Shown: piece after piece, positions 7,668-25,088 of the stretch
How the letters are laid out: each line of letters opens with the position of its first letter
Numbering within the stretch: position 1 is the first letter of the stretch
Assembly: GCA_900234795.1 (NCBI GenBank)
Contig: LT962688.1
Location: forward strand, 2,490,001 to 2,522,000
Length of the DNA: 32,000 nt
Reading direction: 5' to 3'
DNA from: Methylorubrum extorquens
Lineage (GTDB): Bacteria > Pseudomonadota > Alphaproteobacteria > Rhizobiales > Beijerinckiaceae
Translations under genes and position numbers: made by a program
The notes under the pieces: generated by a model
Seen by the model: only the letters and a program-made list of their open reading frames with translations
The model's database searches: none
What the model was told of the DNA's origin: nothing

Positions 7668-8089
7668 CGCCCGACCATGCCCGGAGCGGCCGCTTCCTGA
7701 CAACCGGCTGTGATCAACACGTCCCGTTCGCCATCGTATCTGAGCATGAGCGATATGCTCCCCTGGAATGGCTATCGGCTGGGGTCGGAATTCATCCGGT
7801 CTGAAAGCGCGCTGGCGAATTCCGCTTCGTATTGGCGCCGGCGCTTTCATTCGCCGAGAGAAATGTCATGTAAAAATCTTTGTCGGTTACAAGCTAGGAA
7901 GCCGAAAGACATCCTCTGAAATCGAACCTGTTCGACAGGGGCGAGACCAGGACTGGGTTGTCGGTGAGGCGAGGCGGTCCTCGCCACATTCGGGCGCTTG
8001 GTCCGGCGGCTCGCCCGCGAAAATTTCGGAAAAGTCGAGGGATTTTCGGCGTTTTCCCTTCAGAGCTGCAAGGCCAGTGTCGCGCAACG

Positions 8090-20781: not shown

Positions 20782-20861
20782 TCAGCTTGACCTTGGGCCG
20801 AGCATGATCCTTGCTCGGCCCACCTTCAGGCCCGCCCGACTCTCACCTCAGGACGCACGCC

Positions 20862-21482
20862 TTGCTCCTTACGCCCCGCGAGAAAGACAAGCTCCTCATC
20901 GCCATGGCCGCGCAGGTTGCCCGCAACCGGCTGGCGCGGGGGGTGAAGCTCAACCATCCGGAGGCGATCGCCCTCATTACCGACTTCGTGGTGGAGGGCG
21001 CCCGCGACGGGCGCTCCGTCGCCGAGTTGATGCAGGCCGGCGCCCGCGTTCTCGATGCCTCCCAGGTGATGGAGGGCGTGCCCGAGATGATCCACGACAT
21101 TCAGGTCGAGGCGACCTTCCCCGACGGGACCAAGCTCGTCACGGTCCACCACCCGATCCGCGGCGCACCCTCGGCGGACGTGCCGGGCACGGTGACGACA
21201 TTGCCGGGCGAGATCGTCTTCAATGCCGGCGCACCGCGCACGGTGATCGAGGTCGCCAATACCGGGGACCGCCCGATCCAGGTCGGCTCGCACTACCATT
21301 TCTTCGAGGCGAATCCCGGCCTCGTGTTCGACCGTGACAAGGCCCGCGGCCAGCGCCTCGACATCGCGCCGGGGACGGCGGTGCGCTTCGAGCCGGGCTC
21401 GACCCGCGAGGTGGCACTGGTGCCGCTCTCGGGCGACCGAAAGGTCTACGGCTTCCGCGGCGACGTGATGGGGGCGCTGTGA
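20862..21482 (+). CDS. ureAB: fused urease gamma/beta subunit (UreAB)
   Basis: (M)[16 protein letters not shown]...[11 protein letters not shown] is a complete gamma subunit. After a ~15-aa linker, PGEIVFNAG...[26 protein letters not shown]...GTAVRFEPG...[12 protein letters not shown] is a complete beta subunit. Likely TTG start at 20862; the upstream ATG at 20811 gives a non-homologous extension. Confidence 0.9.
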
Positions 21483-21511
21483 CGCGCGCCCCCACACGAA
21501 GTTCGGCTCGC

Positions 21512-22645
21512 TCACGCCTCCAGTTCGGGCAGGGGCAAACCCGTTGTCGACCAGTGCATGCCGAAGAGGTCGCGTACGGCCTCGACGCGGTTCTCGCTCC
21601 CCGCTGCACGCGTGACCAGCGCCAGGAGGACATCCGCCGGATCCCTGCCGTCGAAGGCGGCAAACGCGGCCTGCTTCAGGCGCGGATCGATCCGTTTCGA
21701 CACCAGGGCCGCGAAATCCTTGCGGGACAGGTCGCCATGCTCCGCCACGAATGTGCGGATCGCGCGGGCTTGCTCCGCAAGTCCTGCATTGACCGTACCC
21801 TGGTAGGTCAGCACCCGTTCCCCGATTTCGGGCGGGAGCAAGGGGATCACGTCGTCGACCGCCCCTGTCGCGACCCAGGCGAGCACGTTCTTTTCCAGAT
21901 GCACCCCGGACAAGGCACGGTGGCGCAGGACGTAGGCATCCGTCTTCAGCTTCAGCCGATGACCGTCGTCGAAACAGACGACGTAGCCCTCGATTCCGGC
22001 TTCGCGACGGGCGGCCTCCGCGAAGGCCCGAGCATCCGCGATGCTTCCATGGCTGCGCACCAAAGGCACCGCGAAGCGCTCGGCCAAATCTGCCAATTCG
22101 ATCTGCGGCAGATAGGTGCCCGAGACCATGTCGCGCGCCGTGAGCAGGGTCAGTGCCGGCCGCTCGTAGGCGACGACGATACGGTTTTCCGGCGAGGTGA
22201 ATTCGAAGACGGGCGTGATGCCGGCCGCGAGCAGGTGACGCGACAGGTCAAGCGTTCCGGAATCGGCCTCGGACCCCGCCGCCATTGCCTGAGCGGTGGC
22301 CCCCATTCGCGTCATGAAGGTGAGGCTGCCCTCCAACAGGACGGGATGGACCATCGAGCCGTCGAGCTTGTCCTGGACCGCGTGCGGCACCGACCAGTCG
22401 ATCTCTTCGATCCGCTCGCGCTCACCCAGATTAAAGAATTTGTGGAAGGGGCGCCCGATGAGGAGGCCGTCGCGATCGAACTTCAGGCCTCCGCACTCGC
22501 GGGCGATCGGGGTGTCGAAGGTCTCAGGCAAGGCAAAGACGTAATCGATGACGGTATGGTTGGGGCGCCGCGAAACGACAAAACCCTTATCGAAAGAGAC
22601 GTGCGGCGTCACGTCGTCGATATGTTCTATTTTTGGGAAACTCAT
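21512..22645 (-). CDS. ATP-dependent RNA ligase, phage T4 Rnl1 (RnlA) family
   Basis: 377 aa (T4 Rnl1 is about 374). Collinear with T4 Rnl1 as I recall it: ECGGLKF / ECRGIMF; RPFHKFFNL / RPMEKFFNL; motif I KLDGS (Lys codon 22367-22369) / KEDGS; FEFTSPENRIVVAY / FEFVAPTNRIVLAY; IEGYVVCFDDGHRLKLKTDAY / [21 protein letters not shown]; C-terminal-domain similarity GAVDDV / GASDDL. Confidence 0.85.
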   Translation of the reverse strand: MSFPKIEHIDDVTPHVSFDKGFVVSRRPNHTVIDYVFALPETFDTPIARECGGLKFDRDGLLIGRPFHKFFNLGERERIEEIDWSVPHAVQDKLDGSMVHPVLLEGSLTFMTRMGATAQAMAAGSEADSGTLDLSRHLLAAGITPVFEFTSPENRIVVAYERPALTLLTARDMVSGTYLPQIELADLAERFAVPLVRSHGSIADARAFAEAARREAGIEGYVVCFDDGHRLKLKTDAYVLRHRALSGVHLEKNVLAWVATGAVDDVIPLLPPEIGERVLTYQGTVNAGLAEQARAIRTFVAEHGDLSRKDFAALVSKRIDPRLKQAAFAAFDGRDPADVLLALVTRAAGSENRVEAVRDLFGMHWSTTGLPLPELEA

Positions 22646-22865
22646 GTCGGTATCTTTCTATGTATTTTATGATCGGCGCACGGATTGGATCGATGATTGA
22701 GCATCGGATGCCAAAGTCGAATGGTCATGATTCTCTCCTGATTCGGCCGATGGATCGGCTGACTGAATATGGCTGTCTAACCTTGAGCCCGGCAAGTCTG
22801 CGCTGACGCGATCGCCGCCGTTTTCCGCTGAACGTGCTGCCACCCCTTCCAAGGCATCTCGAGCT

Positions 22866-24593
22866 ATGGCCGACATCCGCAAGCCCGCCGCCCTCCCTCG
22901 CGCCGCCTATGCCGCCATGTTCGGGCCGACCACCGGCGACCGTATTCGTCTCGCCGACACCAGCCTCGAGATCGAGGTCGAGCGTGATCTCACGACCTAC
23001 GGCGAGGAGGTGAAGTTCGGCGGCGGCAAGGTGATCCGCGACGGGATGGGCCAGTCGCAGGCGACCAACGCCGAGGGCGCCGTCGATACCGTCATCACCA
23101 ACGCCGTGGTGCTCGACCATTGGGGTATCGTGAAATGCGATGTCGGCATCCGCGCCGGCCGTATCTTCAAGCTCGGAAAGGCCGGCAACCCGGACGTTCA
23201 GGCCAATGTCGACATCGTCGTCGGCCCCGGCACCGAGGTGATCGCGGGCGAGGGCAAGATCCTCACGGCCGGCGGCTTCGACAGCCATATCCACTTCATC
23301 TGCCCGCAGCAGATCGAGGAGGCGCTCTGCTCCGGTGTGACGACGATGCTCGGCGGCGGCACCGGGCCGGCGCACGGCACCTTCGCCACCACCTGCACCC
23401 CCGGCCCCTGGCACATCGCGCGGATGATCGAGGCGGCCGATTCCTTCCCGATGAACCTTGCCTTCGCCGGCAAGGGCAATGCCTCGGTGCCCGGCGCGCT
23501 GGAGGAGATGATCCGCGCCGGCGCCTGCGCGATGAAGCTGCACGAGGATTGGGGCACCACGCCCGCCGCGATCGACACCTGCCTCTCGGTGGCGGACGCC
23601 TTCGACGTGCAGGTCATGATCCACACCGACACGCTCAACGAGTCGGGCTTCGTCGAGGACACCATCGCCGCCTTCAAGGGCCGCACCATCCACGCCTTCC
23701 ACACCGAAGGCGCCGGCGGCGGTCACGCGCCGGACATCATGCGCGTGGCGGGGCTGGCCAACGTGCTCCCGTCGTCGACGAACCCGACACGGCCCTTCAC
23801 AAAAAACACCATCGACGAGCATCTCGACATGCTGATGGTGTGCCACCACCTCGACCCGTCGATTCCAGAAGACCTCGCCTTCGCCGAGAGCCGCATCCGC
23901 AAGGAAACCATCGCGGCCGAAGACATCCTGCACGACATCGGCGCGCTCTCGATGATGTCGTCCGACAGCCAGGCGATGGGCCGGGTCGGCGAAGTCGTGA
24001 TCCGCACGTGGCAGACCGCCGACAAGATGAAGCGCCAGCGCGGCGCCCTGCCCGGAGACGCGTCGGGCAACGACAACCTGCGCGCCCGGCGCTACGTGGC
24101 GAAATACACGATCAACCCGGCCATCGCGCACGGCGTCTCGCGCCATATCGGCTCGATCGAGCCGGGCAAACTCGCCGACCTCGTGCTGTGGACGCCCGCC
24201 TTCTTCGGGGTGAAGCCGGACCTCGTGCTCAAGGGCGGCATGATCGCCACCGCGCCGATGGGCGACCCCAACGCCTCGATCCCCACGCCGCAGCCGGTGC
24301 ATTACCGGCCGATGTTCGGCGCCTACGGCCGCGCGCCCTATGCCACCGCGCTCACCTTCGTCTCGCGGGCGGCGCTCGAGGACGGCGTGAAGGAGAAGCT
24401 CCGCGTCTCCAAGGAGCTGGTGGCGGTGGAGAACGTGCGCGGCGGCATCTCGAAGAAGAGCATGATCCTCAACGACGCGACCCCGAATATCGAGATCGAC
24501 CCCGAGACCTACGACGTGCGCGCCGACGGCGAATTGCTGGTCTGCGAGCCGGCGGAGGTCTTGCCGATGGCGCAGCGCTACTTCCTGTTCTGA
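22866..24593 (+). CDS. ureC: urease alpha subunit UreC
   Basis: 575 aa. [27 protein letters not shown] (carbamylated Lys), [27 protein letters not shown] and [12 protein letters not shown] are canonical urease active-site blocks. Confidence 0.97.
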
Positions 24594-24596
24594 GCT

Positions 24597-25088
24597 ATGA
24601 TCCGCGCCACCCGTGTCATCCGCCGCGACCGTCTCGGCTCCGGCGAGATCGTCGATCGCATCGTGCTCGACTCGAACGACCGGCATCGCCGCCGCATGGC
24701 GATGCGCGGCGTCGGCGGCACCGCGTTCCTGCTCGACCTCGCCGAGGCCACCGTGCTCGATGACGGCGACGCCCTCGCGCTGGAGGACGGCCGGCTCGTC
24801 TGGGTCGAGGCGGCGCCCGAGGCGCTGCTGGAAATCCGCGCGCCCACCCCGCACGCCCTCAAGCGGCTGATCTGGCATATCGGCAACCGGCACATCCCCG
24901 CCGAGATCGGCGAGGCCGCGGTGTGGATCGGTCACGACCACGTGCTCGCCGAGATGGTGCGGGGTTTGGGCGGCAGCGCCGAGCCGGTGATGCGGCCGTT
25001 CCGGCCCGAGGGCGGGGCCTATGCCGGCGGCCATGCCCATGGCCACGGTCACGGACATTCGCACGATCACCCGCACGCCCATGATTGA
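24597..25088 (+). CDS. ureE: urease accessory metallochaperone UreE (His-rich tail)
   Basis: The ATG lies 3 nt after the ureC stop. AWHIGNRH-type block ([14 protein letters not shown]). C-terminal [18 protein letters not shown]. Confidence 0.9.

Follow-up and report, generated by a model that had tools for sequence, protein, structure and literature searches.

To our knowledge, what is understood of Rnl1-type RNA ligases comes from phage T4 alone, where the enzyme undoes the cleavage of host tRNA, and from their use as a laboratory reagent. We know of no assigned role for cellular Rnl1-type ligases. In this study, one such gene was analyzed, which is located in a 32-kb stretch of Methylorubrum extorquens DNA (referred to as the window) on the opposite strand between the urease genes ureAB and ureC. 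A first-pass annotation made from the sequence had described it as an orphan ligase of the phage T4 type. Based on homology searches, structure prediction and comparison of related loci, the joint explanation considered probable is that of an old stand-alone Rnl1 cassette that occupies a slot of variable content among the urease genes, plays no role in urease and, in the window, is present as an impaired copy (glycine at residue 52, Gly52).

The closest described system is T4 Rnl1 (gp63, rnlA; PDB entries 2c5u, 5tt6 and 9do4). It shares the two-domain architecture with the window ligase (374 amino acids (aa) in T4 and 377 aa here), represents its best match in sequence and fold, and has its motifs I, III, IV and V as well as Lys75 and Phe77 kept in the window protein. 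Differences concern the identity of only about 23–29%, a score of the window ligase below the TIGR02308 cutoff, an arginine in place of T4 Lys119 across the clade, the missing equivalent of Arg54 in the window allele and the predicted domain orientation. Moreover, the window ligase is cellular, chromosomal and stand-alone, with no adjacent gene for the polynucleotide kinase-phosphatase Pnkp or an anticodon nuclease. The closest phage homolog, the ligase of Caulobacter phage CcrBL9, likewise has an alphaproteobacterial host and is 35.8% identical over 96% of the protein, but it is encoded by a jumbo phage and lies well outside the cellular clade, whose members are 47–100% identical. The ligase domain of fungal Trl1 (Rnl6) and archaeal Rnl3 (MthRnl, Pab1020) have the adenylyltransferase domain including the Rnl1-like N-subdomain in common with the window protein (Foldseek E-values of 7e-10 to 1e-8; PMC6379707), but carry other C-terminal modules and are far weaker matches than T4 Rnl1.

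Leader-peptide attenuators (trpL-type and antibiotic-responsive) represent a further system for comparison. Relatives of the window ligase resemble them in having a promoter, a short and poorly conserved upstream open reading frame (uORF) and a terminator directly before the Shine-Dalgarno sequence, and furthermore in a uORF box complementary to the 5' arm of the terminator. They differ in that the ligase leader has no Rfam match and its anti-terminator is a weak candidate, and the window copy has a start-overlapping uORF instead of a terminator. We know of no leader-peptide attenuator described for any RNA ligase.

Family identity and the Gly52 allele

The features of the ligase gene are as follows:

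21512–22645, reverse strand: gene for an Rnl1-family ATP-dependent RNA ligase, Gly52 allele; open reading frame (ORF) of 377 aa with Pfam, PDB, phrog_562 and Foldseek matches; product SOR29346.1
22367–22369, reverse strand: codon of Lys93, the adenylylation lysine of motif I (KLDG), aligned with T4 Lys99; lysine in 118 of 119 homologs
22490–22492, reverse strand: codon 52, GGA (Gly), for an otherwise invariant arginine (T4 Arg54); arginine in 119 of 119 homologs and in T4

The ORF was present as previously described, antisense between ureAB and ureC, and its assignment to the Rnl1 type withstood profile and structure searches. Pfam model PF09511 (RNA_lig_T4_1) matched residues 51–238 (E = 1.9e-20, 74.1 bits, cutoff 28.3) and also all 44 aligned relatives. 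T4 Rnl1 was the best match in the PDB, its three chains covering residues 29–269 with an E-value of about 1e-22, and phrog_562 ('RNA ligase and tail fiber protein attachment catalyst') matched residues 19–344 with E = 9e-64. For comparison of the fold, an AlphaFold2 model was built from the 44 relatives, reaching a predicted local distance difference test (pLDDT) score of 93.5. In Foldseek, the three T4 Rnl1 entries ranked on top (E about 1e-20, 366–371 aligned columns), with the fungal Trl1 ligase domain (7e-10) and archaeal Rnl3 (to 1e-8) far behind. The global TM-score of 0.55 and the root-mean-square deviation of 15 A relative to T4 Rnl1 suggest that the two domains are turned differently toward each other in the model, and do not indicate another fold.

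Similarity in the C-terminal domain, which the first-pass annotation had noted, is borne out by the Foldseek span and the phrog_562 match, both of which include the all-helical domain distinguishing Rnl1 from Rnl3, Rnl4 and Rnl6. The corresponding Pfam family PF20819 (T4_Rnl1_C) matched 30 of the 44 relatives, and the window ligase itself had no match to it at E ≤ 0.01. Sequence and predicted structure together identify the ORF as a full-length Rnl1-family RNA ligase by descent, including the C-domain. The exact protein (SOR29346.1, Methylorubrum extorquens) was found on 13 contigs, and a 99% identical protein is annotated as RNA ligase of M. extorquens.

In order to read off the positions essential in T4, 119 homologs of at least 340 aa were aligned with T4 Rnl1. 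Within the window ligase, K69, F71, K93, D95, G96, E148, E219, G220, K232 and K234 are kept, the last eight corresponding to T4 K99, D101, G102, E159, E227, G228, K240 and K242. Motifs I (KxDG lysine), III (Glu), IV (EG) and V (KxK) are all present, in agreement with the motifs named before: K93 in KLDGS, VFEFTSPENRIVVAY, E219-G220-Y-V, and K232/K234 in LKLK. The position of T4 Lys119 is an invariant arginine throughout this ligase clade. Every T4-essential position is conserved in the window ligase except Arg54, and the Rnl1-specific N-subdomain set (T4 Arg54, Lys75, Phe77) is incomplete, with K69 and F71 present and the Arg54 equivalent absent.

The 90% identity cluster of the window ligase comprises 14 members, among which Gly52 occurs only in P0121 and P0132, representing the window's own sequence (on 13 contigs) and one further variant. 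P0127 (WP_056118288.1, 'MULTISPECIES: RNA ligase [Methylobacteriaceae]') equals the window protein except for Arg52, and this otherwise identical Arg52 protein was found in sister strains. Sequence comparison thus marks the Gly52 substitution as real, recent and limited to one lineage. The first-pass annotation had noted neither this substitution nor the uORF upstream of the ligase described below.

According to PMC6379707, T4 Arg54 touches the gamma-phosphate of ATP, and ligase activity in vitro requires it. PMC4797309 describes the R54A mutant as defective in steps after adenylylation, with the isolated step 3 diverted to deadenylation of adenylylated RNA (AppRNA). By analogy with these mutants, the Gly52 protein is probably impaired in overall RNA ligation; it should still fold, yet be defective in overall sealing. 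Most likely, Gly52 marks a dispensable RNA-repair gene whose allele in the window has recently lost its function or become hypomorphic. That the protein is still a competent ligase, the substitution being tolerated or compensated and the window encoding a normal active member of the clade, is doubtful, although far from negligible. Its ORF is otherwise intact and one residue apart from the Arg52 allele, the allele is present on 13 contigs and accompanied by a second Gly52 variant, and T4 R54A was milder than K117A in isolated steps according to PMC4797309. These points have to be set against the invariance of the arginine in all 119 homologs and T4, the report that Arg54 is essential for ligation in vitro (PMC6379707), and the nature of the exchange, since glycine removes the whole side chain. 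In view of the missing Arg54 equivalent, a Lys93Ala control, as proposed previously for biochemical work, would therefore start from a protein that is possibly already inactive.

Apparent frameshifts, with the query matching in two frames, were observed in four homologous copies (comparison loci are cited by L-number and position):

L017:6001–7106, L018:6001–7090, L020:6001–6683 and L049:3001–4094: frameshifted homologous copies with two-frame matches, from two Mesorhizobium, Rhodobacteraceae KLH11 and one urease-linked metagenomic contig

In addition, one M. extorquens entry (P0125) is truncated at the N terminus. These copies suggest sporadic decay, as would fit a dispensable gene, with assembly errors as the alternative.

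The ureAB/ureC junction and the origin of the ligase gene

The genes flanking the ligase and the contents of the corresponding junction in other species are listed below:

20811–21482, forward strand: fused ureAB (urease gamma and beta; Pfam Urease_gamma, Urease_beta), left border of the variable slot
22866–24593, forward strand: ureC (urease alpha; Pfam Urease_alpha, Amidohydro_1), right border of the variable slot
21464–21498, no strand assigned: GC-rich hairpin over the ureAB stop codon and the 29-nt convergent gap, with no U-run
L114:5213–5922, L115:5118–5678 and L116:5121–5123: ureAB/ureC junction in other Methylobacterium, holding a MazE/PIN pair, an HD_4 gene or nothing

The gene order in the window is ureD, fused ureAB, the ligase ORF on the opposite strand, ureC, ureE, ureF and ureG. 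The arrangement of ureB or ureAB, an opposite-strand ligase and ureC was found in 11 distinct loci, which belong to Methylorubrum, several lineages of Methylobacterium (sp. 4-46 and M. oryzihabitans among them), Prosthecomicrobium hirschii, a metagenome-assembled genome of the Beijerinckiaceae and metagenomic contigs. Their ligases range down to about 57% identity to the window ligase.

By means of relatives of the fused UreAB, the urease clusters of three other Methylobacterium species were inspected. The junction harbors genes for a MazE-type antitoxin and a PIN toxin in M. brachiatum and an HD-domain (HD_4) gene in Methylobacterium sp. 10, and in M. organophilum, ureAB directly abuts ureC, the empty site reading TGA-g-ATG. 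Because a MazE/PIN pair, an HD-domain gene or nothing occupies the position in sister species, the ureAB/ureC junction is a permissive variable slot and the ligase is one of several alternative occupants. The comparison of related clusters suggested by the first-pass annotation found the two urease genes adjoining in one of these three clusters and other cargo between them in the remaining two.

Ligases of the wider clade are mostly not located near urease. The cassette repeatedly sits within otherwise conserved gene clusters, namely between ruvA and ruvB on the same strand in Mesorhizobium (L027:6140–9202) and between sucD and sucA in Filomicrobium (L031:6001–8185); in Pelagibius, Yoonia and Roseibium, the ligase was found in unrelated contexts. 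Steady co-occurrence with urease across related clusters, as for an accessory urease gene, was not observed. No evidence was found that ties the function of the ligase to urease, and its location is judged incidental on the basis of these comparisons.

A coupling of the ligase to urease was nevertheless weighed, as the first-pass annotation had raised antisense interference: convergent or antisense transcription could modulate how far ureAB transcripts run on into ureC, or the ligase could act on urease transcripts. The opposite-strand position between ureB and ureC is kept in 11 distinct loci of several genera, the ligase gene splits an operon whose halves need co-expression, and the convergent gap measures just 29 nt and carries a strong hairpin. 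The latter reaches −30.6 kcal/mol (z −3.1) on the forward and −32.0 kcal/mol (z −3.5) on the reverse strand, and may act as a 3'-end or bidirectional stop signal. Since the three other Methylobacterium species have unrelated cargo at this junction or none at all, ligases of the clade mostly occur apart from urease and a catalytic-site variant is tolerated in this lineage, this coupling is decidedly unlikely. An antisense match to the Rfam family RF02514 (5_ureB_sRNA) within ureC (window 23035–23320, reverse strand, 73.6 bits) was also discarded as a small RNA (sRNA), since it recurs with 96–116 bits in every other ureC tested and thus reflects conservation of the coding sequence.

Regarding the origin of the gene, homologs with 47–71% identity were found across the Hyphomicrobiales, Rhodobacterales and Rhodospirillales. 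In a neighbor-joining tree, the urease-linked ligases are monophyletic and nested in a larger alphaproteobacterial clade, located away from urease, whose members carry a hairpin upstream of the ligase gene (see below). Because the urease-linked ligases are monophyletic down to about 57% identity and nested in this chromosomal clade, the phylogeny argues for an old insertion into the permissive site from a chromosomally inherited alphaproteobacterial clade, neither recent nor derived from a phage.

That the gene was recently taken over from a T4-like or jumbo phage is, by comparison, extremely improbable. The family is abundant in phages (1741 matching phage records), but the best phage relative, CcrBL9, reaches no more than the 35.8% identity given above, and T4-like phages about 29%. 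Neither convincing terminal direct or inverted repeats nor mobility genes, integrase or phage genes were found around the ligase insert; a mobile-element signature was therefore rejected, the empty site of M. organophilum being a simple junction. The position is conserved in 11 loci of several genera, and divergence extends across the clade. Base composition had been taken to suggest an acquisition by insertion. The lower G+C content (GC) at the 5' end of the gene and in the spacer is real, with 0.53 at 22400–22849 compared to 69% for the window, but the dip is modest and confined to the intergenic promoter region and the first ligase codons. As a sign of recent acquisition it does not hold, since GC at third codon positions (GC3) is 0.80 in the ligase gene, which is below the urease genes (0.85–0.93) but within the range of the whole window (0.80–0.93).

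Window ORFs were filtered by GC3 and 25 of them were scanned against Pfam. Among these 25 ORFs, none matched a Pnkp, PrrC, restriction, integrase or phage family, which agrees with the earlier statement that the window is free of end-healing, anticodon-nuclease, restriction and phage genes. Other genes identified were flgI, fliX, dksA, ilvA, ugd, crtB and crtI as well as genes for an MBOAT protein, a PilZ protein, an epimerase, an amidohydrolase and a flavin reductase. The window is an ordinary chromosomal neighborhood.

Further insertions were observed within urease clusters. A second slot lies between ureC and ureE, where a DUF29 gene is present in another M. extorquens strain and three Methylobacterium species, and none in the window:

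L032:5535–6020, L114:7689–8174, L115:7438–7920 and L116:6884–7168: DUF29 gene between ureC and ureE; window 24593–24597: no such gene

Moreover, the metagenomic urease-linked locus L025 (7310–7852 and 3088–3489) carries an FmdE-family gene and a small ORF between ureA and ureB and a DUF559 (Vsr-like) gene after ureC. This locus adds to the evidence that unrelated genes build up in the urease clusters of alphaproteobacteria.

Leader regions of the ligase genes

Upstream regions were compared between the loci located away from urease and the window, which contain the following features:

L004–L014, L016–L018, L027–L031 and L036–L048, e.g., L013:5774–5991 and L027:6786–7003: leader cassette of promoter-like TTGAC motif, uORF and hairpin with T-run; covarying hairpin
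22642–22728, reverse strand: uORF of 28 codons in the window (MTIRLWHPMLNHRSNPCADHKIHRKIPT*), whose TGA stop overlaps the ligase ATG (ATGA)
22733–22739, reverse strand: Shine-Dalgarno sequence AGGAGAG of the uORF, read from the sequence
22646–22865, no strand assigned: divergent spacer of 220 bp between ligase/uORF and ureC, GC about 0.53

All unlinked loci at 47–59% identity (31 loci, 29 of them unique) possess a GC-rich hairpin followed by a T-run ending 16–24 nt before the ligase ATG, with GGAG between T-run and ATG. The hairpin and T-run are absent from the urease-linked subclade, including the window, and from homologs of ≤44% identity. In the leader alignment, 91% pairing and 27 compensatory cells were obtained for the terminator helix, an outcome that none of 500 shuffles equaled. 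An ORF of about 30–45 codons with a Shine-Dalgarno sequence precedes the hairpin, its stop being located 23–36 nt before it in most loci, and a TTGAC motif occurs at a fixed distance upstream in 23 of 28 loci, compared to 2.7 expected from shuffles. In at least one locus, from Yoonia, the upstream neighbor is encoded on the other strand, and the hairpin is therefore not the terminator of that gene.

Promoter, uORF and intrinsic terminator in these relatives look like the layout of a ribosome-dependent transcription attenuator. An intrinsic terminator with covariation, located between uORF and ligase as in such attenuators, is present in the relatives; this feature does not apply to the window. 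A uORF box with the consensus GCGGCTT is complementary to the 5' arm of the terminator and co-varies with it in several loci, making an anti-terminator pairing a candidate. Leader peptides of the relatives are poorly conserved; Asn is enriched 3.3-fold and Ser 2.2-fold in them, often as an aligned AAY-UCN pair, with p-values that ignore the relatedness of the sequences. Sensing of the queuosine-family codons (NAY; Asn/Asp/His/Tyr) was rejected, as their share of 0.171 compares to 0.157 in the ligase ORFs (p = 0.25). No known RNA family was detected in an Rfam scan of the leaders at gathering thresholds. An sRNA match of another kind, BjrC1505 (RF02356, 66 bits), was located at L004:3681–3824, about 2 kb upstream of ruvC-ruvA-ligase in Mesorhizobium, and is unrelated.

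Within the window, the Shine-Dalgarno sequence of the uORF is strong, and all that the ligase start codon has ahead of it is a weak GAAAGA. L032, representing another M. extorquens strain, and L034, with a ligase 71% identical to that of the window, each have a uORF that matches the one in the window in length, in position (−83) and in its ATGA overlap. L001 has a 33-codon uORF overlapping the ligase start by 20 nt, and the other urease-linked loci are without a uORF. Between the window and L032 (uORF at 7918–8004; ligases 99% identical), all five substitutions in the uORF are nonsynonymous, and the other ~137 nt of the spacer contain only about three differences. Exclusively nonsynonymous changes are expected if the act of translation matters and not the peptide sequence. 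Window-type uORF peptides are loosely similar to the leaders of the attenuator clade (…N-S-Y…C-A-D…). Judging from these sequence features, the window uORF may be a remnant of the ancestral leader, and the overlap of its stop with the ligase ATG suggests translational coupling of the ligase to the uORF.

The spacer at 22646–22865 must hold the ligase promoter and probably that of ureC as well. A scan of 21300–23000 for sigma-70 consensus promoters and intrinsic terminators yielded nothing above chance, and a sigma-54 motif noticed by eye in the spacer was discarded due to wrong spacing. The four loci with a uORF share a conserved CC-N-TTGC motif, which is a candidate −35 element. No special RNA structure was found in the uORF and start region (z = +0.7).

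Possible function and significance

The results can be combined into a proposed course of events. An Rnl1-family ATP-dependent ligase, consisting of an adenylyltransferase and a helical C-domain, has been handed down on the chromosome in an old alphaproteobacterial clade, and its gene would move as an independent unit that brings along its promoter and a short uORF. In the ancestral cassette, an intrinsic terminator would have followed the uORF, 16–24 nt before the ligase start, and the attenuator-type layout suggests that the ligase was kept off and induced when translation of the leader was disturbed. Within one subclade (Methylorubrum/Methylobacterium, Prosthecomicrobium, Beijerinckiaceae), the cassette would then have settled antisense in the ureB/ureAB-ureC junction, and the terminator appears to have been lost from this subclade. 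In the Methylorubrum lineage, with the uORF stop placed over the ligase ATG, translation of the ligase is probably coupled to that of the uORF.

With regard to function, the alphaproteobacterial Rnl1 clade may comprise translation-stress-inducible RNA (tRNA) repair ligases gated by a ribosome-sensing leader of promoter, uORF and terminator. Stalling, possibly at Asn-Ser codons, would permit read-through, and Methylorubrum would have been rewired to translational coupling by the start-overlapping uORF after settling in the urease slot. This proposal is tentative and is given a rather low probability.

An attenuator-like leader would also suit induction by translation damage in a conflict system, in which the clade would serve anti-ribotoxin or defense-linked RNA repair, like T4 Rnl1 against PrrC, with partners elsewhere in the genome. 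This possibility is unlikely, despite the T4 paradigm, the toxin-antitoxin cargo in the urease slot of a sister species and one Roseibium locus with rtcR and a Ro60/Rsr-like gene of an RtcR-controlled RNA-repair operon some 4 kb away from the ligase (L030:11171–13116), a single case that may be a coincidence. PADLOC models matched neither the ligase nor the uORF peptide, and all-against-all clustering of neighbors together with seven Pfam-annotated neighborhoods revealed no conserved partner gene across the loci. Furthermore, partners of the T4-type pathway (Pnkp, anticodon nuclease) were found neither in the window nor in about 20 related neighborhoods. Resealing of cuts made by VapC (a PIN toxin) by a stand-alone Rnl1 was considered as well and rejected: VapC products are listed as 5'-OH in a review from a VapC laboratory (PMC4705866) and would not be joinable by Rnl1 without healing.

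Several observations weigh against the explanation preferred here, i.e., an old stand-alone cassette in a variable urease slot with an impaired Gly52 copy, or against the regulatory reading attached to it. The score for TIGR02308, the equivalog model of T4 RnlA, is 103.1 bits and lies below the cutoff of 242.25; the T4 function is therefore not simply transferable to the window ligase. The effect of the Arg-to-Gly exchange is extrapolated from alanine mutants of T4, and the nearby Arg50 (in ARECGG) could conceivably compensate for the lost Arg52. The slot survey covers three other Methylobacterium urease clusters, and the urease-linked placement, kept down to about 57% identity, may possibly have a selective reason. 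As the window has no terminator, regulation of its ligase is deduced from the uORF overlap, and the anti-terminator of the relatives is 66% paired in the full alignment compared to 63% in shuffles, 18 of 500 of which were as good.

Public databases already list the window ligase as 'RNA ligase', and its existence is not new. In the literature searched, no description of its placement in the urease slot, of the Gly52 allele or of the uORF-terminator cassette of the wider clade was found, including no paper on such a leader. This cassette, located outside the window and with a mechanism partly supported by sequence comparison, appears to be the most interesting lead. The results remove the urease association as a functional clue for the ligase. 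They also indicate that the ureAB/ureC and ureC/ureE slots allow unrelated cargo to sit within a conserved multi-subunit enzyme cluster. Moreover, the copy that this widely used methylotroph lineage carries is probably a poor representative, and the Arg52 allele would be better suited to biochemistry. The uORF-terminator leader of the relatives could be used as a reporter for conditions that induce the ligase and, if the translation-stress-inducible reading is true, would provide the first physiological handle on cellular Rnl1-type ligases.

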